A model generated the notes under the pieces. The model worked only from the letters and a program-made list of their open reading frames with translations. It did not search any database and had not been told where the DNA came from. Both the position numbers and the translations under genes were made by a program. 64,000 nt of DNA, from the NCBI GenBank assembly GCA_016710645.1, contig JADJVI010000056.1, positions 1,388 to 65,387 on the forward strand. The letters are read 5' to 3'. The stretch comes from Actinomycetales bacterium (lineage in GTDB: Bacteria > Actinomycetota > Actinomycetes > Actinomycetales > Dermatophilaceae). Of the stretch, positions 3,507 to 31,683 are shown piece after piece (position 1 is the stretch's first letter; the number at the start of each line of letters is the position of its first letter).

Positions 3507-6500
3507 TCATGCCTGCTTGCGCGACGCGAGTCGGATCCGCACGAAGATGGTCAGGGCCGCGAGAGCGGTGGCCAGAGCCAGCCCTGCCAGCGGAAGGAGC
3601 CACCACGGCATACCCGCTCGCACTGCCACGGGAAGGTCGATGCTCCGAATGCCAGCGCCGTCGAGGTACTCGATCTTGATCGTGTGCCTGCCGATCTCGA
3701 CATCGGGCGGGATGGTGACGCTCTGCGAGAGAGTGCCCTTGTCGTCGGTCCTGGCGTTCGCCAACACCCGCCGACTGCTGTTGAGGGTGATCTGCACGGG
3801 GACGGACGGCTGAAGCTGGGTTGCTCCGACGACGACCTGCTGACCGGGAGTCACAGTGCTCTCGCTGCCCACCTGAATGACTGGCGCACCGCCGATGGCC
3901 AGGACATTGATCCCCGAAGGCTCGGCCTGGTCCAGCGTCGTCGGGCCGGGTGTGGTGAGGTCCGGGTTGATGGAGCTCGACCACCCGTAAAGCGCGACCG
4001 TGATGGCGTTGTAGCCCTTGGCGTTGGGGTGCATGAACTGCTGGGTGAGCGAGGGGTAATCCGAGGTGTGGAGCTCAGCCGCCTGGGTGGCAAGCCAGGT
4101 GTCGAACGCGGAGGTCGACGCGCCCGACACCACGGTGACGCCACGGATATACGGCTCCGGATCGCAGGACGTGTGATTGGGCTGCACAGCATTGGCGGTT
4201 TGGTCCACGAAGTAGATGTGGCGCCCGCCCTTGGCTGCTTGAGTCACGGCAGCCGAGATGGCGGCGTTGAGCCGTTCGACGATCTGGTTGGCCAAGGTGA
4301 TTTCGGTCTGGCTGAATCCCGAACAGTTGCCGCGGACGTCTCTCGGCAAGACGGCGGGGTAGGCCAACACCAAGACAGGAGCCGACTTCTGTCGCTGTTT
4401 CAGCGACTCATCGTCGTTGATGATCGAGTAGATGGTTTGGTAGACGCGGCTCAGGCGGCCCAACTGGCCGGGCTGGCTCGGATCATTCAACTGAGAGATC
4501 TGCTCGAAAGCCCGCTCCCGGAACTCCGGAGTGCCGCACTCGCCCGGCTTGACGCACGCTTCCACGATGGAGGCGAAACCGACGTCGTTCCCGCCCAGCG
4601 TAAGGACGACGGCATCCGGCTTCTTGGCGAGGTGACGCAGTTGGGCGATCTGGGGCTGGTTCTCCTCCACGGTGGAGTTGGGTGCGTTCTGGCCCGACCA
4701 CATGTCCTCGATCACCGCACCTGAGCAGGCGATGAGGGTGCGACGGTCTTCGGGGAACTGCGGCAGCGTGTGGGTCTTGGTCGACTGGTGACACCGGTTG
4801 GACGCCACGTCGGTCCCCTTGACGTAGTCGCCGGCCCCTTCCCCAGCGGAGTACGAGTCGCCCATGACGACGACCCGGCCGCTCTCGGTGACCGTCTTCA
4901 GCCAGGACCCGGCAGCGTTCTTGAGGTTGTCGAGGGCGTTGACCGTGATGGTGCCCTTCGCGTCAACCGCCGACACGTCGTTACCCCACGTGGTCACGCG
5001 GTAATTGGCGGTGCCTCCGGTCAAGTCGACGCCGGCGGCCACCGTCCACGAGCGCGAGATGGTCTCGCCCGGTGCGATGTTGCCCAGCCGGAATCGCGGC
5101 GGCAGGACCGCGGGGAACATCGACTGCGAACCCTGGTCGGTGAAGGTCAGCCCGATCTGGGCGTCTTGGATCATGCGCGAGGACGGATTCGTCACCGAGC
5201 CGGTGATGGTGACCTGCTGGCCGACGATGGCCTGGCTGGGGGCTTGCGCTTTCACCTCGAGGTTGGGCACGCCCAATCTGTTGATATTGGCGTCCAGTTG
5301 AGCCGTGTCGTCGATCGGCACATAGGCGCCGCCGGTCGTGTTCGCGACGCACTGGAGTTCCTCCCGCCCGGCTGGTGACAGTTGGAAGCCCATCGCGTTG
5401 ATGGTGACGTCGAAGCCTTGCTTGGATACGTCGGCTGCCACCGAGCACGGCGGCGGCCCGCAGTTCGACTCTCCGTCGGAGACGAGCAGGATCGTGGCGC
5501 CGCGATACCCCTGCGCCATCAGTCGATCGACCACCGCACGCAGCGCCGGTCCGGTGGGCGTGTTGCCATCCGCCCCGAGCCCGTCAATGAGGGCGGTCAG
5601 CCGGCTACCGTCGCCAACCCGACCGACGGCGCCTCCGCCCGCGAAGTCCCCGGCGGCACACCCGTCGACCGAGTCTCCCCCTGGATACGTCCACAGTCCG
5701 ATCTCGGATGAGGAGGGCTGCCGCAGGACGAACTTCTCCAGCGCCGACTTGGCTCCCTCGAGTTTCACCGTGCCCGCGGCGTCGTGGTCGTTCATCGAAC
5801 CGGACAGGTCGAAGACCACGGCCAACGCGCCACCGCCGGGGGTGGAACTGCCCGTCCCGACTGGTCGGGTGCCTGTGGTGGCTTCGGCCGGTGTGGTCCG
5901 CGCGCGGTTCCACTGGGCCAGCACACTGTCGGCGATGCGGTCGAGGACTTGGGGGTTCTTGGTGCTGTTGGAGTGGCCGCACGAGTCGATCCACGCCGAG
6001 ACGAGGCTCATGATGGCCAACTGCAGTCCCGGCTCGCCGCTGAGGATCTGGTCGAGAACCGCGGAGTCGGACACCAGCTTGCCGAGAGCCGCGACTTCCA
6101 TACTGATGACGGCCCCCACCACCCCACCCCATTTCGCTCCCGACAACGCCGACCGCAGCATCGCCATCGTCTGATCGCTCGTCGTTCGACAGCTCACGTC
6201 CTTGACGCCGAGGCTGGCCTTGATGCCCTTCCGGTCGTACTCGGAGGAGAGGTAGCCGGTGGCCGAGGTGACGGGCACCACGCCATCGGTCCGGAGGTCG
6301 ATGTCGTAGAGCTTGATCCCGAAGAGGGTGCGACTGATGGTTGTCGTCGTCGAGATCATGGTGATCGGCCGCCCCGGTGCCGCTGGGGGTTTCGGGCAGC
6401 CGCTCGGCATCCAGTGCTTCTCGTCGTGACGGGCCAAGCACTTGGCTGCGTTCGACATGCGCGGAGGCAAGGTCTTGTTGGGTGACCAGAGTTCGTCCCA

Positions 6501-18704: not shown

Positions 18705-18754
18705 GGGCGTGACGATATCGACGTTGGCGTTAAGGCTGGGATAGAACAGGGCGC

Positions 18755-26249: not shown

Positions 26250-27719
26250 TCAGCGGCGGGAGAGCAGGACGACGGTCGAGAGGGCGTCCACGGCATACGG
26301 GCGCAGGTCCCATCCCGAGAAGCCGACATCCGGGATCAACCCGGCCGACAGGAAGTCGTCGCGGAAGGCTTGGTAGGAGTAGCCCGCGTCGCTGCGGAAC
26401 TCGACCACGATGCGCCCGCGCGGGGAGCAGCACATCGCCAGGCGCCGGAAGACCTCCGACCGATGGACCGGGTCCACCTCCAGGATGCTGCTGTTGATCC
26501 ACGCGATGACGTCGAAGGGCACGCTCTCGCCGAGGTCGTCGAGGATGAGTCGCTCCGGTTCCATGACAAGCCACTTCGCATCCGGGTATGCCGTCTCGGC
26601 CGCCGCGATGCCGGTCGGGTCGACATCGGTGCCGACGACGTAGTGGCCGAGCACGCTCAGGGCGCCACCGACGCGGCCGGCGCGGCACCCGACTTCCAGG
26701 ACCCGCGAACCCGGCCGGACCATGACATCGAGCAGGCGGGCCTCCTGCGGGAGGCCACGGCGGGCAGCCACCGCTGCCGCGGCGACGGGTCCGGTGAGCG
26801 GCGCGGTTGCCGACCCACCATCGGAAGCACCAGCGGGTATGCCGTGCGGCTGGTGTGCGAGGTGGGCGCCCGGACCGTCGCCAGGGCGGGGAAGGCGGAT
26901 CTCCACCCACGACATCCCGAGCTCGGAGGCGACCTCGCGGGCCGACGCGGGACGCATCGCCGGGTCTTTGGACAGGCACCGGCCGATGATGTCGACGACA
27001 TCTGACGGCACGGTCGCGGGCAACGTGGGCATTGGCTCAGTGACATGCGCCAGCGCGGTGGCGATGGGCGTGTCCTTGTCGAACGGCCTTCTGCCGGCGA
27101 GGAGTTCGTGCGCGACGACCCCGAGGGCGTAGAGATCACTGGCCGCGGTCGCGGGACGGCCGAGCGCCTGCTCCGGGCTGAGGTAATGGGGCGTGCCGAG
27201 CACCTCGCCGGTGCGGGTCAGACCCATCGATCCCGCAGCGCGAGCGATGCCGAAGTCGGTCAGCTTGACCGCACCGTCGCTGGTGAGCAAGACGTTGGCC
27301 GGCTTGACGTCACGGTGCACGACGCCGGCCTCGTGGGCGGCGTTGAGGCCCAGCGCCATCTGGCCGACGATCGACCTGACCCGGGCGACGTCCAAGGCAC
27401 CGCGCTCGCGCAATTCGACTGCGAGAGAATGGCCGTCGACGAGCTCCATGACGATGTAGGCGAGGTTTTCATGCTCGCCGTAGTCGAACAGCGTGGCGAT
27501 GTTGTGGTGCGACAGGCCGGCCGTGAGCAGGGCCTCCTCGTGGAAGCGCTGCGCGAAGACCGGCTCTGCGGACGTGTCGGGCCGCATGATTTTGACCGCG
27601 ACGACGCGCGCCAGGACGGTGTCCTGCGCACGCCAGACATCGCCCATCCCCCCGGATGCGATGAGCGAGTCGAGCACATAACGGCCACCCACGGCGACGC
27701 CATGAGTGAACCGCTTCAC
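26250..27719 (-). CDS. Hanks-type Ser/Thr protein kinase fused to a C-terminal class-I SAM-methyltransferase-like domain
   Basis: Kinase motifs GGMGDVW, VAVK, HRDVKPANVLL, DFGIA, GTPHYLSPE. The C-terminal VLEVGCRAGRVGG...VVGTDVD...FDVIAW resembles MTase motifs I, II and III. Confidence 0.85.
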   Translation of the reverse strand: MKRFTHGVAVGGRYVLDSLIASGGMGDVWRAQDTVLARVVAVKIMRPDTSAEPVFAQRFHEEALLTAGLSHHNIATLFDYGEHENLAYIVMELVDGHSLAVELRERGALDVARVRSIVGQMALGLNAAHEAGVVHRDVKPANVLLTSDGAVKLTDFGIARAAGSMGLTRTGEVLGTPHYLSPEQALGRPATAASDLYALGVVAHELLAGRRPFDKDTPIATALAHVTEPMPTLPATVPSDVVDIIGRCLSKDPAMRPASAREVASELGMSWVEIRLPRPGDGPGAHLAHQPHGIPAGASDGGSATAPLTGPVAAAAVAARRGLPQEARLLDVMVRPGSRVLEVGCRAGRVGGALSVLGHYVVGTDVDPTGIAAAETAYPDAKWLVMEPERLILDDLGESVPFDVIAWINSSILEVDPVHRSEVFRRLAMCCSPRGRIVVEFRSDAGYSYQAFRDDFLSAGLIPDVGFSGWDLRPYAVDALSTVVLLSRR

Positions 27720-27899: not shown

Positions 27900-28572
27900 T
27901 CAGCCGCCGCGGGTGAGTGGCGGATGCAGCACCTCGACGGGCCCACGCCGAAAGAGTTGCGCCGGCCGGCCGCCGTCGACGGTCGACAGCCGGCCGGTCG
28001 GCTCCAGGAACCCCTGCGCCGAGCTGACTTTGCGGTGGAAGTTGCGCGGGTCGAGGGCGTGCCCCCAGACCGCTTCATACACTGCCCGCAACTGCCCGAT
28101 GGTGAACTCCGGAGGGCAGAACGCCGGCCCCTAGCGAGCTGTATTCGAGCTTGGCGCGCGCCCGCTCGATGCCGTCGCGGAGGATCTTGGCGTGGTCGAA
28201 AGCCAGCTCCTGCCAACGGATTTCGTCGACGGGGGTCCACAGCGCTGCCGTAGCGTCACTGCCACCCACGACAGCCCCGAGCATCGGCGCCAGCGCGAGG
28301 AAGGCGACGGTGACGGTCGGCCCACGCGGGTCGCGCCCGGGGGTGCCATAGCTCGCCAACTGCTCCAGGTGCACGGCGCCTGCCAGCCCGGTTTCCTCGC
28401 GCAATTCCCGGTATGCCGCGTCCGCCAGGTCCTCGTGCGGCAGGACGTAGCCACCCGGGAGAGCGAGCTGGCCGGCATACGGATCGATGCCGCGACGCAC
28501 GAGCAGGACTGCCAGCCGGCCTTCTCGAATGGTGAGGACGACGAGGTCGACGGTGACGTGGAAGTCGGACAC
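27900..28572 (-). pseudogene. nrtR: NrtR-like Nudix-wHTH transcriptional regulator split by a +1 frameshift
   Basis: ORF 28075..28572 holds the Nudix domain (GGYVLPHEDLADAAYRELREETG) and ends in out-of-frame residues. ORF 27900..28091 carries the NrtR wHTH signature VYEAVWGHALDPRNFHRKV. Removing one C from CCCC at 28128-28131 restores LEYSSLGPAFCPPEFTIGQLRAVYEAVWG. Confidence 0.75.
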
Positions 28573-28601
28573 GACACCATCCTAGCTAGTTTTCGTCGAC
28601 T

Positions 28602-28644
28602 TGACGATATCGACCTTCGTCGCTTAGCGTCATCCTGACGATAT
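28602..28644. promoter_or_regulatory. two direct copies of TGACGATAT, 34 bp apart, in the AT-richer divergent promoter region (candidate operator)
   Basis: Read directly at 28602-28610 and 28636-28644, between the nrtR-like and SPFH genes. Confidence 0.3.
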
Positions 28645-28678
28645 TCAGTCAGCCGGCCACCAGCCTCAGGAGGACACC

Positions 28679-29695
28679 ATGGCCACCATCACCCGCTACC
28701 CCTTCGTCCGACACATCCGTGGCACCGCGACGAGCCACCTTGAGCACCGCGTCGGTGGCGAGGTGCGCCACGCCGGGCCGGGCGCGGCGTTCTGGTTCCG
28801 GCCGCTGCAGGCCGTCATCAGCGAGGTGCCGGTCGACGACCGTGAGCAGGCCGTGCTGGTCCGGGTGCGGACCACCGATCTGCAGGAAGTGTCGGTGCCG
28901 GGCACCGTGACCTATCGGTTTGCCGACCCCACCGCGGCCGCGAGCCGGGTCGACTTCGGCATCGACCTCGGGTCAGGCCGCTGGCGCGAGACCCCGCTGG
29001 AGACCGTCGGCGCGATGATCCACGGCGCGGTCTGGGCGGCGGTCACCGCGGCGGTCGCCGACCTCGACCTGCTCGCGATGCTGCGCCTGGACACCGCCGA
29101 ACTCGGGCAGTCGGTGACCAGCCGTCTCACCGCCGACGGGCGGCTCGCCGCGATCGGCGTCGAGGTCGTCGAGGTGCGCTTCGCGGTGCTGCGGCCCGAC
29201 CCGGACGTCGAGCGCGCCCTGCAGACCCCTGCCCGCGAGCTCATCCAGCAGGACGCCGACAAGGCGACCTTCGAGCGGCGTGCGGTGGCCGTCGAGCGTG
29301 AGGCCGCGATCGGCGAGAACGAACTGGCCAACCAGATCGAACTCGCCCGTCGCCAGGAGCAACTCATCGCCCAGAAGGGCGCCAACGCCCGCCGTAACGC
29401 CCAGGAACTCGCCGCCGCCGATGCGATCGCTGCCGAGGCCGAGGCGAGCCGGACGCTTGCCGTGGCCAATGCCAAGGCGGCCGCCGATCGGGCGGTCGGC
29501 CAGGCCGCGGCCGACACCGAGAAGGCGACGTTGGCGGCATACGAGGATGTCTCCCGCGACGTGCTGCTCGCCCTCGCGCTGCGCGAACTCGCCCAGCACC
29601 TGCCCTCGATCGACCAGCTCGTGCTGACCCCCGATGTCATCACTGGCCTGGTCAGCCGACTCGCCCTGCCGGCGCCCGCTTCGACCGAGCGCTGA
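28679..29695 (+). CDS. SPFH/band-7 domain protein with a long Ala/Glu-rich coiled-coil tail
   Basis: 338 aa. SPFH core plus ERRAVAVEREAAIGENELANQIELARRQEQLIAQKGANARR. AGGAGG is 6 nt upstream of the ATG. Confidence 0.8.
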   Translation: MATITRYPFVRHIRGTATSHLEHRVGGEVRHAGPGAAFWFRPLQAVISEVPVDDREQAVLVRVRTTDLQEVSVPGTVTYRFADPTAAASRVDFGIDLGSGRWRETPLETVGAMIHGAVWAAVTAAVADLDLLAMLRLDTAELGQSVTSRLTADGRLAAIGVEVVEVRFAVLRPDPDVERALQTPARELIQQDADKATFERRAVAVEREAAIGENELANQIELARRQEQLIAQKGANARRNAQELAAADAIAAEAEASRTLAVANAKAAADRAVGQAAADTEKATLAAYEDVSRDVLLALALRELAQHLPSIDQLVLTPDVITGLVSRLALPAPASTER

Positions 29696-29735
29696 ACCGC
29701 TCGACCCGCCGAACGATAGGAAAGGGAGAAGGAAC

Positions 29736-30626
29736 ATGAGCACCCCCAGGGCCGTCGTGGTCACCCGGGCGACGGAGTATGCCGAGCTGCTGGCTCGGCA
29801 CGGGACGCGCGGGCAGGCGGCGTTCTTTCTGCAGACCCGCGGCCGCGCGCTCGACGAGGTGGCGGCACGGCATACCGCGACTGAGGCGGCGTGCCGGGAG
29901 GTGGAGCGCGCGATCCCCGCCGACTGGCGGCGCGCGCAGGTGGAGCGGGAGGAACTGTCGCGGTTCGTCTTCGGGCCCGACGATGTCGTCGTGGTCCTCG
30001 GGCAGGACGGGCTGGTGGCCAACGTCGCGAAGTACCTCGACGGGCAGCCAGTCATCGGGCTGGATCCGACACCGGGCGCCAATGCGGGCGTGCTCGTGCC
30101 ACACCCGGCCGCTGCCGCGGGCGACCTGCTGCGGGCGGTCGTCGGCGGGCGTGGGCGGCTGGTCGAGCGGACCATGGTCGCCGCGACGGCCGACGACGGG
30201 CAGTCGCTGGTCGCGCTCAACGAAGTCTTCGTCGGGCAGCCCGGGCACCAGTCGGCGCGCTACCGGTTGGCCGTCGGCGGGGTGGCCGAGCGGCAGTCCT
30301 CGTCCGGGCTGATCGTCGGCACCGGCACCGGCGCGACCGGCTGGTGCGCCTCGCTGGCGCGGGTGCAGGCGCCCGGGATGCGGCTCCCGAGCCCGGCCGA
30401 CCCGGGGTTGGCGTGGTTCGTGCGGGAGCCCTGGCCCTCGCCGACGACGGGTGCGGACCTGGTGGCGGGGTTGTTGTCCGGGGAGGAACGGTTGGACGTG
30501 CGGGTCGAGTCCGACAGCCTGGTGGTCTTCGGGGACGGCATCGAGGCCGATCGACTCACCTTGACGTGGGGCCAAGAACTCTCGGTATGCCGTGCCCCTC
30601 GCGTCCTGCGCACCGTCGCCGGGTAG
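29736..30626 (+). CDS. ATP-NAD kinase family protein (variant GGDG motif = GQDG)
   Basis: ORF 29634..30626 trimmed to MSTPRAVVV (GGGAGAAGGA upstream). VVVLGQDGLVANV, ALNEVFVG, SSSGLIVGTGTGATGW match the NAD-kinase fold motifs. Confidence 0.7.
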   Translation: MSTPRAVVVTRATEYAELLARHGTRGQAAFFLQTRGRALDEVAARHTATEAACREVERAIPADWRRAQVEREELSRFVFGPDDVVVVLGQDGLVANVAKYLDGQPVIGLDPTPGANAGVLVPHPAAAAGDLLRAVVGGRGRLVERTMVAATADDGQSLVALNEVFVGQPGHQSARYRLAVGGVAERQSSSGLIVGTGTGATGWCASLARVQAPGMRLPSPADPGLAWFVREPWPSPTTGADLVAGLLSGEERLDVRVESDSLVVFGDGIEADRLTLTWGQELSVCRAPRVLRTVAG

Positions 30627-30764
30627 CCGGCACGGCATACGTGGCGGAGATCCCCACCAAAGGGCGTCGAGATAGCAGGGCGTCGTCGGCCGGCAGGCCC
30701 GAGGCGGACAGCTCGCGGACTACTTTTCGCGCAGTTTCTACGCTACTTTTCGCGCCTCTCCCAC

Positions 30765-30917
30765 CTACTCGCTGGTCCCCACGGCTGCAGGCGCGTGCCA
30801 TGCATGATCCTCACGTGGCTCGGCCTCGGCGAACAGACGCACGGCATTCTCGGTTGACGGGGCGACCTGCTCCTGGGCACCCGCGACCAACATCGCCTCA
30901 ACGGCGGCCTGACCCAT
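30765..30917 (-). pseudogene. 50-aa remnant resembling the N-terminus of a HEPN-type toxin partner
   Basis: My translation is MGQAAVEAMLVAGAQEQVAPSTENAVRLFAEAEPREDHAWHAPAAVGTSE*. It starts 12 nt after the NTase gene stop and is followed by a low-GC tract with a duplicated CTACTTTTCGCGC. It is too short for the ORF track. Confidence 0.3.
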
Positions 30918-30928
30918 GGTCCATCAGG

Positions 30929-31519
30929 TCACGAGGCGTCACCACCAATCAAGGCGACCATCGGGCGTGAGGTCACCGTCACCTTAAACGGATCGGCGTC
31001 TGCGGCGTCCCAGGTCTGTGGACGAACCCGCCGAATTGAGACCTCTCGACCGAGGCGTCCAGTGGCGACATCAGCCACGTCATCCAGAGCATCCGGGTCC
31101 GCTGTGCCCACCACCAGCACGTCGATGTCGTCTGGGACCGGGCCGGGCTGCTGGGCATAGCGGGCCGCCCACGACCCGTAGATCCACGCCTGCCGAATCC
31201 CCGACACGTCGGCCAGCAGCTCGCTCAACACAGGCACCGGACCGAATGTCACTGCCATCAATGCCGCCAACGGCCCAAAGACCGGACTCTCGGTTTCGGC
31301 ACGCACCAACCGTTGGTTGCCGCGGCGGACCTCCCGCACCAGCCCTGCCTGCGCCAACCGGTCAACCTCGCGCATCACGGTTGGCCCCGACACACCCACC
31401 GCCCGGGCGATCTCGACGAGGGAGAACTCGCGCTCGGGGTGAAGCATGATCCACGCGACGATGTCTCCTTGCGCCCGCGACCGCAGCAACGGCAGCAGCA
31501 GCGGAGACCCTTCTTTCAT
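30929..31519 (-). CDS. wHTH + minimal nucleotidyltransferase (MntA-like antitoxin architecture)
   Basis: N-terminal wHTH FSLVEIARAVGVSGPTVMREVDRLAQAGLV. NTase motif YGSWAARY...PDDIDVLVVG. Confidence 0.7.
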   Translation of the reverse strand: MKEGSPLLLPLLRSRAQGDIVAWIMLHPEREFSLVEIARAVGVSGPTVMREVDRLAQAGLVREVRRGNQRLVRAETESPVFGPLAALMAVTFGPVPVLSELLADVSGIRQAWIYGSWAARYAQQPGPVPDDIDVLVVGTADPDALDDVADVATGRLGREVSIRRVRPQTWDAADADPFKVTVTSRPMVALIGGDAS

Positions 31520-31610
31520 AAAAGCGACAGTAGCATCGACTTCATGAAAGGAGGCTGGAACGAGAGAGACAGGCCGAAGGCGGGCCCCATCGGACGCGCG
31601 AGGAACGAAG

Positions 31611-31683
31611 CGCGCCCGAAGGGATTCGAACCCCTAACCTTCTGATCCGTAGTCAGATGCTCTATCCGTTGAGCTACGGGCGC
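31611..31683 (-). tRNA. tRNA-Arg (anticodon ACG)
   Basis: The reverse complement GCGCCCGTAGCTCAACGGATAGAGCATCTGACTACGGATCAGAAGGTTAGGGGTTCGAATCCCTTCGGGCGCG folds as a cloverleaf with anticodon loop CTACGGA. CCA is not encoded. Confidence 0.9.

Follow-up and report, generated by a model that had tools for sequence, protein, structure and literature searches.

The nrtR/nrtX-nrtY locus and its relatives

We analyzed a 64,000-nucleotide stretch (the window) of contig JADJVI010000056.1, which belongs to a high-GC actinobacterial metagenome bin of 61 contigs, 3.47 Mb and 91% completeness. Among named proteins, the closest ones are from Dermatophilaceae. The locus under study consists of nrtR, a gene for a predicted NrtR-type repressor, and a divergent two-gene operon, nrtX-nrtY. 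On the minus strand, nrtR is split into two open reading frames (ORFs). The 5' part (28075-28572) encodes the Nudix domain (Pfam NUDIX, 2.4e-18) and ends early after a frameshift, which alignment with two conspecific assemblies places at 28126/28127. The 3' part (27900-28091) is a 63-codon ORF in another frame that encodes the winged-helix domain (Pfam NrtR_WHD, 3.5e-11) and is the only NrtR_WHD match in the genome. The NCBIfam model 'ADPR responsive transcriptional repressor NtrR' matched at 2.7e-26, below its equivalog cut-off. A spacer of 106 bp separates nrtR from nrtX and carries two predicted, unstranded NrtR operators, operator 1 (TTTTCGTCGACTTGACGATAT, 28590-28610) and operator 2 (TTAGCGTCATCCTGACGATAT, 28624-28644). 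On the plus strand, nrtX (28679-29695) encodes an SPFH/Band-7 protein of 338 amino acids and is followed after 40 nt by nrtY (29736-30626), which encodes a 296-amino-acid protein with a nicotinamide adenine dinucleotide (NAD) kinase fold resembling NADK2. The true start of nrtY is the ATG at 29736, located behind a GGAAAGGGAGAAGGA ribosome-binding site, and not position 29634.

As relatives, we fetched 80 loci encoding NrtY-like kinases from species-representative genomes, in which at least 355 stretches matched. Layout counts were taken over the 76 actinobacterial loci with enough flanking sequence. The arrangement NrtR(-) <> SPFH(+)-NrtY(+) was present in 67 of these 76 loci, among them Kineosporia and a Frankiaceae genome, and wherever a locus includes upstream sequence, the SPFH gene comes before the kinase-like gene. 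The first-pass annotation of the window had described an NrtR gene facing a two-gene SPFH/kinase operon rather than a classical NAD biosynthesis gene and had proposed a neighborhood survey of the pair; the survey bears this description out. Outside the actinobacteria, Proteus mirabilis carries a Nudix-winged helix-turn-helix (wHTH) gene divergent from a 338-amino-acid SPFH gene, which is followed by a 315-amino-acid kinase-like gene with a GQDG motif, and the spacer contains repeated TGTCATAA(A/G)GACACTAA boxes. The same three genes are found on a Rhizobium etli plasmid, where they are annotated as NUDIX, band 7 and 'ATP-NAD kinase PpnK-type'.

The arrangement itself is already published. Rodionov et al. 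(2008; Nucleic Acids Res 36:2047, PMC2330246) list 'nrtR2<#>nrtX-nrtY' in their Table 1 for Kineococcus and Frankia, with the pathway given as '?', '#nrtR2; #nrtX-nrtY' for Streptomyces, and 'nrtR<#>nrtX-nrtY' for Proteus mirabilis; the first two entries belong to group Actinobacteria-2b, and the function is listed as unknown. Our locus shares with this regulon the divergent layout, the 21-bp operator with its GT-N7-AC core, and the occurrence in Kineosporia/Kineococcus-, Frankia- and Streptomyces-type actinobacteria as well as in P. mirabilis. The window copy differs in its frameshifted nrtR, but nothing essential differs. Because the 2008 main text gives no gene identifiers, we equated nrtX and nrtY with the SPFH and NAD-kinase-like genes by layout and species. 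On these grounds, we are confident that the locus represents the nrtR<>nrtX-nrtY divergon of group Actinobacteria-2b and that it is under NrtR operator control. The identities and folds of the genes, the conservation of the operator and the linkage of the three genes across phyla are the established part of this assignment.

The NrtY-type kinase has a patchy distribution. A phylum-wide sample of 300 other genomes contained it in seven cases, five of them among the eight genomes of a single large-genome genus. Within the family it was detected in 13 of 150 genomes, and one of three congeners has it. The kinase is also carried on plasmids of Rhizobium (42 records), Streptomyces, Kitasatospora, Moraxella and Methylomonas. 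The only congener with the module has it about 450 kb from the PEPCK gene, without nrtR and with variant AGTCAnnnTGAC boxes, and in two congeners the sequence upstream of PEPCK bears no relation to the window. We thus rejected synteny within the genus, since both the position of the module and the PEPCK upstream region differ among congeners. Together, the patchy distribution, the plasmid carriage and the lack of synteny within the genus argue for a self-contained, accessory and mobile module. A conserved fourth gene was also considered and rejected, as clustering of the neighboring ORFs in the 80 loci gave lineage-specific synteny only, e.g., a PfkB kinase gene beside nrtR in one lineage.

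Two relatives show how the surroundings of the module vary. In a genome of the same genus (G391, locus L098), a gene for a 189-amino-acid zinc-ribbon Nudix hydrolase that has no wHTH domain (5587-6156, plus strand) lies upstream of nrtX-nrtY on the same strand, and two variant boxes, TAGAGTCAAGTTGACAATA and ATAAAGTCAGAGTGACCACA, are found between this gene and nrtX. In this genome, the nrtX-nrtY pair seems to be regulated in a different way. In an 86%-identical relative (L085, 4935-7411), the module is followed by ParE-, PemK- and ribbon-helix-helix (RHH)-type toxin-antitoxin genes, which are not the neighbors found in the window, suggesting that the flanks turn over quickly between close relatives.

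Predicted operators and promoter, and the repressor gene

The region around the spacer has a GC content of 58-60% (28500-28699), compared to 70-76% in the flanks, and contains two copies of TGACGATAT (28602-28610 and 28636-28644) that are 34 bp apart. Both features had been pointed out in the first-pass annotation and were recovered. The sequence TGACGATAT has three matches in the window, whereas 0.09 would be expected by chance. Each of the two copies in the spacer forms the right half of a 21-bp palindrome (28590-28610 and 28624-28644), for which the consensus across 126 orthologous sites is TTATCGTCAnnnTGACGATAA. NrtR boxes have been described as 21-bp palindromes with a GT-N7-AC core (PMC2330246), and our motif has both this core (G6T7...A15C16) and this symmetry. 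Two such palindromes are present in 59 of the 67 orthologous intergenic regions, with a distance of 33-34 bp in 55 of these 59; the remaining eight regions were clipped by the boundary estimate. Even in loci without an adjacent nrtR, at least one operator site is located directly upstream of the SPFH gene in seven out of nine cases. Motif discovery in orthologous spacers, which the earlier annotation had suggested, thus yielded a conserved operator.

We built an operator matrix from the 126 orthologous sites and scanned the whole 3.47-Mb genome with a cut-off of 14 bits. The two sites of the window rank first (28590-28610, 30.8 bits) and second (28624-28644, 27.3 bits) genome-wide. The third-best site (24.2 bits, position 3613 of contig C15) is a lone match in an unrelated spacer, and NrtR therefore appears to be dedicated to the nrtR/nrtXY divergon in this genome. 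A wider NrtR regulon was rejected, as the scan gave no other convincing site. NrtR almost certainly represses the nrtXY operon.

Two matches elsewhere in the genome (G000) deserve a short description. The site on contig C15 is part of an AT-rich spacer (approximately 3560-3640) between genes for a HipA-like kinase and a large glycosidase. This spacer contains nested palindromes (ATACATATGTCGATCATATCGTCATATTGGCGAAATGATCGATATTTGT), one arm of which gave the 24.2-bit score, and they probably constitute a site of another regulator. The third exact copy of TGACGATAT in the window, at 18710-18718, is probably a chance match because no site in that region reached 14 bits.

The position of the operators suggests how repression could work. 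Operator 1 includes a -35-like hexamer, TTGACG (28601-28606), and operator 2 includes a -10-like hexamer, TAGCGT (28625-28630), which follows after 18 nt. We infer that TTGACG-18 nt-TAGCGT is the -35/-10 pair of the nrtXY promoter, with one operator placed on each promoter element. Comparison of the orthologues revealed that the spacer positions are constrained to CTTGACG in site 1, where the consensus is TnATCGTCAnCTTGACGAnAA, but are free in site 2, which fits a -35 element inside site 1. On the other side, the start of nrtR is about 17 nt away from site 1, so that nrtR is probably autoregulated.

Characterized NrtR proteins (Shewanella SO1979, Synechocystis Slr1690 and Mycobacterium smegmatis MSMEG_3198; PMC2330246, PMC6800001) likewise combine a Nudix and a wHTH domain, bind palindromic boxes and are autoregulated. 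They control genes of NAD synthesis or salvage, whereas the NrtR group described here would control nrtXY only, given that the genome contains no other strong site. A further difference concerns the Nudix box. The two NrtRs that were characterized in 2008, from Shewanella and Synechocystis, have degenerate Nudix boxes and no activity (PMC2330246). In the window copy, however, the box G-x5-E-x7-REL-R-EE-x-GL is complete, as it is in 61 of 67 orthologues, and the other six differ only at the last glycine. This contrast suggests that NrtR proteins of this group may still be able to hydrolyze ADP-ribose, their own predicted effector.

The description of nrtR in the first-pass annotation needs one correction, as the frameshift splits the gene into a Nudix ORF and a wHTH ORF. 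The minus strand reads CTAGGGGCCGGCG at this site in the window and CTAGGGGCGGCG in two independent conspecific assemblies (CTAGGGG-CGGCG in the alignment). Over 6 kb, the contigs of these assemblies share 99.2 and 98.7% identity with the window, and both encode an intact Nudix-wHTH NrtR of 223 amino acids. The extra base is a C at 28126/28127 (a G on the plus strand) and is not part of the neighboring run of G residues. Either the assembly contains an error or the switch is truly broken in this strain, with the Nudix sensor separated from the DNA-binding domain. In the latter case, nrtXY would be constitutively on, or the module would be starting to decay. The absence of the extra base from both conspecific assemblies is compatible with a strain-specific mutation, and a decayed copy does exist elsewhere, at L068 (5849-6894), where a 35-amino-acid SPFH remnant is found together with an in-frame stop within the nrtY homologue. 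On the other hand, both operators and both downstream ORFs of the window are intact, and the operators have the same sequence as in the nearer of the two conspecifics (L083). Single-base indels are a common assembly error in metagenome bins, and the source is a bin of 61 contigs. We therefore regard an assembly error as the likely explanation and a real loss of the repressor as the less probable one, though one to be taken seriously.

Properties of NrtX and NrtY

NrtX matches Pfam Band_7 with 53.7 bits (cut-off 23.6). Its AlphaFold2 (AF2) model, which has a mean predicted local distance difference test (pLDDT) score of 86.3, consists of a beta-rich N-terminal part, the SPFH domain, a single helix at 184-288, about 105 residues long, and short helices at the C-terminus. 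Hence, the long coiled-coil-type tail predicted in the first-pass annotation is seen in the model. Foldseek matches include HflK/C, stomatin, erlin, prohibitin, flotillin and the major vault protein. In its predicted fold, NrtX follows the protomer design of the cage-forming SPFH proteins among these (HflK/C, 7vhq/7wi3; stomatin, erlin, prohibitin and flotillin) and of the major vault protein with its SPFH-like shoulder, namely an SPFH domain, a very long helix and a short C-terminal segment. In contrast to the cage-forming proteins, NrtX has no transmembrane or hairpin anchor, and its partner is a kinase instead of an NfeD protein or the FtsH protease. We found no hydrophobic anchor at the N-terminus, where the first 80 residues form beta-strands in the model, and the sole hydrophobic peak (Kyte-Doolittle average over 19 residues, KD19, of 1.77) corresponds to an Ala/Val-rich helix inside the domain at residue 117. 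For this reason, the earlier description of NrtX as a membrane scaffold is unsupported, and 'oligomeric scaffold' is the safer term.

The AF2 model of NrtY has a pLDDT of 92.6 and a predicted template modeling (pTM) score of 0.88, and its top 50 Foldseek matches in the PDB are all NAD kinases. The best structural match is human NADK2 (7r4l, E 9e-20, TM 0.73), ahead of the Pseudomonas aeruginosa and Mycobacterium tuberculosis enzymes, and human mitochondrial NADK2 is also the sole sequence match among solved structures (E 1.5e-6). NrtY contains the motifs GQDG, NE and GTGTGATGW. The last of these aligns with TGTGSKAW of NADK2 and with TPTGSTAY of the bacterium's own PpnK, and its SSG...TGTGxxxW form is that of NADK2. 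Thus, NrtY and NADK2 (7r4l, 7r4j, 7n29) have the catalytic Asp and the NE motif in common and share SSG...TGTG(S/A)xxW in place of the bacterial DG...TPTGSTAY. The two proteins nevertheless show only about 21% identity, NADK2 has GGDG where NrtY has GQDG, and NADK2 is neither paired with an SPFH protein nor controlled by NrtR.

The replacement of GGDG by GQDG, which had caught attention in the first-pass annotation, is a conserved trait. The 48 NrtY orthologues compared all keep G89, D91, G92, N162, E163 and G197-T198-G199, and at least 90% of them have Q90. The wider family, sampled with 99 full-length representatives, has GxDG at this place, where x is Q in 58 proteins and P in 19. The catalytic Asp, the NE motif and the nucleotide-binding Gly-rich motif are kept across the family. 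A profile alignment with the own PpnK pairs VVLGQDGLV with IVLGGDGTI, ALNEVFV with ALNEVSI, and SSSGLIVGTGTGATGW with GCDGVIIATPTGSTAY.

We also considered whether NrtY is simply the housekeeping NAD kinase of the organism and rejected this idea, since a canonical ppnK (GGDG, NE, TPTGSTAY) is present on contig C52. The five other NrtY-bearing genomes that we tested contain a canonical ppnK as well. NrtY is therefore an extra paralogue. It shares the two-domain NAD-kinase fold and the aligned catalytic motifs with canonical PpnK/NadK (M. tuberculosis 1u0t and the own copy on C52; profile match with 92.6% probability over residues 83-294), but, unlike these enzymes, is patchily distributed and stays below the Pfam and NCBIfam thresholds. 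The first-pass annotation had named three outcomes that would count against its proposal, namely lack of conservation of the pair with NrtR, lack of a conserved operator-like motif and identity of the kinase with the ordinary PpnK. What we found is a conserved pair, a conserved operator and a second ppnK.

A model for the switch and its alternatives

Based on these data, we propose that ADP-ribose lifts repression and thereby turns on both an NADK2-type NAD(H) kinase and its SPFH partner, and that this adjusts NADP(H) when NAD turnover is high. We hold this model as a whole to be somewhat more probable than its negation. An NrtR dimer would bind to each of the two 21-bp palindromic operators, which are predicted to cover the -35 and -10 elements in front of nrtXY as well as the beginning of nrtR, so that both transcription units would be repressed. 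A rise in ADP-ribose, the product of NAD consumption, would cause NrtR to leave the DNA, leading to expression of the operon. NrtY, as a second NAD kinase of the mitochondrial NADK2 type, would then phosphorylate NAD(H) to NADP(H), and NrtX, an SPFH protein without a membrane anchor, would oligomerize and scaffold or gate NrtY. The net effect would be an adjustment of the NADP(H) pool at high NAD turnover. With its complete Nudix box, NrtR may additionally hydrolyze its own effector and so reset the switch. In vitro, ADP-ribose released the Synechocystis and Shewanella NrtR proteins from DNA (PMC2330246), and it is by homology that we infer the same effector here. The overlap with the promoter, the use of NAD(H) as substrate and any contact between NrtX and NrtY are likewise presumed.

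Several observations weigh against this model. Both domains of NrtR, the Nudix domain and the winged-helix domain (PF21906), score well but lie in two frames in the window. A promoter and terminator scan of 28400-30900, which used the strict sigma-70 consensus, found nothing. The identity of nrtX and nrtY with the 2008 genes rests on the layout in the listed species and clades. NrtY had no match to Pfam at E<=0.01, and the best NCBIfam NAD-kinase model scored 24.6 bits, missing its cut-off of 371. NAD kinases (PF01513 and PF20143) are expected to have GGDG, whereas NrtY has GQDG, and the second Gly is replaced by Q or P throughout the family, which suggests that the use of donor or substrate may differ from that of known NAD kinases. 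Finally, the literature that we searched contained no measurements of enzyme activity, binding or expression for any nrtX or nrtY, no paper linking NrtR, SPFH and NAD kinase, and none characterizing the pair.

Some of these points would also fit a different activity of NrtY, in which the enzyme phosphorylates ADP-ribose (giving 2'-phospho-ADP-ribose) or another NAD-derived nucleotide, such as nicotinic acid adenine dinucleotide (NaAD), and the operon processes its own inducer. The systematic change of GGDG to GxDG and the scores far below the NAD-kinase family cut-offs are in line with such an activity, joint control by a sensor of ADP-ribose would make sense for a catabolic or detoxifying operon, and in the same-genus relative mentioned above a plain Nudix hydrolase gene lies directly upstream of nrtX-nrtY. 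However, NrtY agrees with NADK2, a true NAD kinase, in its adenosine-binding motifs (NE, GTGxGxTGW) and in the SSG motif, and all top structural matches are NAD kinases. We therefore consider this activity improbable. The first-pass annotation had gone in yet another direction and proposed that the pair could answer or counteract a loss of NAD+ caused by NADase toxins or defense effectors, such as those of abortive infection. ADP-ribose from NAD cleavage would then switch on a shelter for, or the rebuilding of, the nicotinamide cofactor pool. Such a role would agree with ADP-ribose as the effector expected by homology, with the patchy and mobile nature of the module (in few phylum and family genomes, on plasmids of several genera, not syntenic within the genus) and with window neighbors that include a type VII secretion system (T7SS) toxin cassette and a PDC-M05A-like gene. 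Yet no PADLOC 2.0 model matched NrtX or NrtY, no NrtY homologue was detected in 50,697 phage records, and only 3 of 134 immediate neighbor proteins across the loci match a PADLOC model at E<=1e-10. These 134 proteins are mainly PfkB kinases, short-chain dehydrogenases, transporters, peptidases and oxidoreductases, and no further gene is conserved with the module. We thus rejected an association with defense and conclude that the module does not live in defense islands. The earlier view of the surroundings as an accessory stretch holds with regard to the patchy distribution, but an accessory distribution does not by itself make a defense system. As this distribution is the only positive evidence for a role in defense or counter-defense, we regard such a role as unlikely.

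Two neighbors in the window matched PADLOC models. Convergent with nrtY, a gene on the minus strand (30929-31519) that adjoins tRNA-Arg(ACG) (31610-31683) encodes a 196-amino-acid wHTH and nucleotidyltransferase protein with a full-length match to the candidate defense family PDC-M05A (E 1.2e-46). On the other side of the locus, the minus-strand gene at 26250-27719 encodes a Hanks Ser/Thr kinase fused to a class-I methyltransferase-like domain. It matched the PD-T4-6 kinase models (2.5e-94), which probably catch any Hanks kinase. The same kinase-methyltransferase gene is located beside nrtR in both conspecific assemblies.

A bolder version of the kinase model can also be put forward. NrtX could form a soluble, anchorless and vault-like SPFH cage that encloses or gates NrtY, providing a compartment triggered by ADP-ribose in which NAD(H) is turned into NADP(H). 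NADP(H) is a form that many NADases and NAD-consuming enzymes do not use. If such a cage existed, part of the cofactor pool would survive an NAD-depleting attack or stress, but we rate this version as a long shot.

The copy in the window represents a known unit, in a clean but unremarkable form. What our analysis adds is the geometry of two operators and a predicted promoter for the actinobacterial loci, the finding that the Nudix box is intact in this group of NrtR proteins, the apparent single-target regulon in this genome, the test of the neighborhood for defense genes, which argues against defense, and the apparently strain-specific frameshift. The nrtX-nrtY pair, which was listed in 2008 as a predicted target of NrtR with unknown function, is found in many phyla. 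It brings together a predicted ADP-ribose sensor, an anchorless SPFH scaffold and bacterial relatives of mitochondrial NADK2. The operator, promoter and protein models make the regulatory half of this unit directly testable and define the enzyme assay for the other half.

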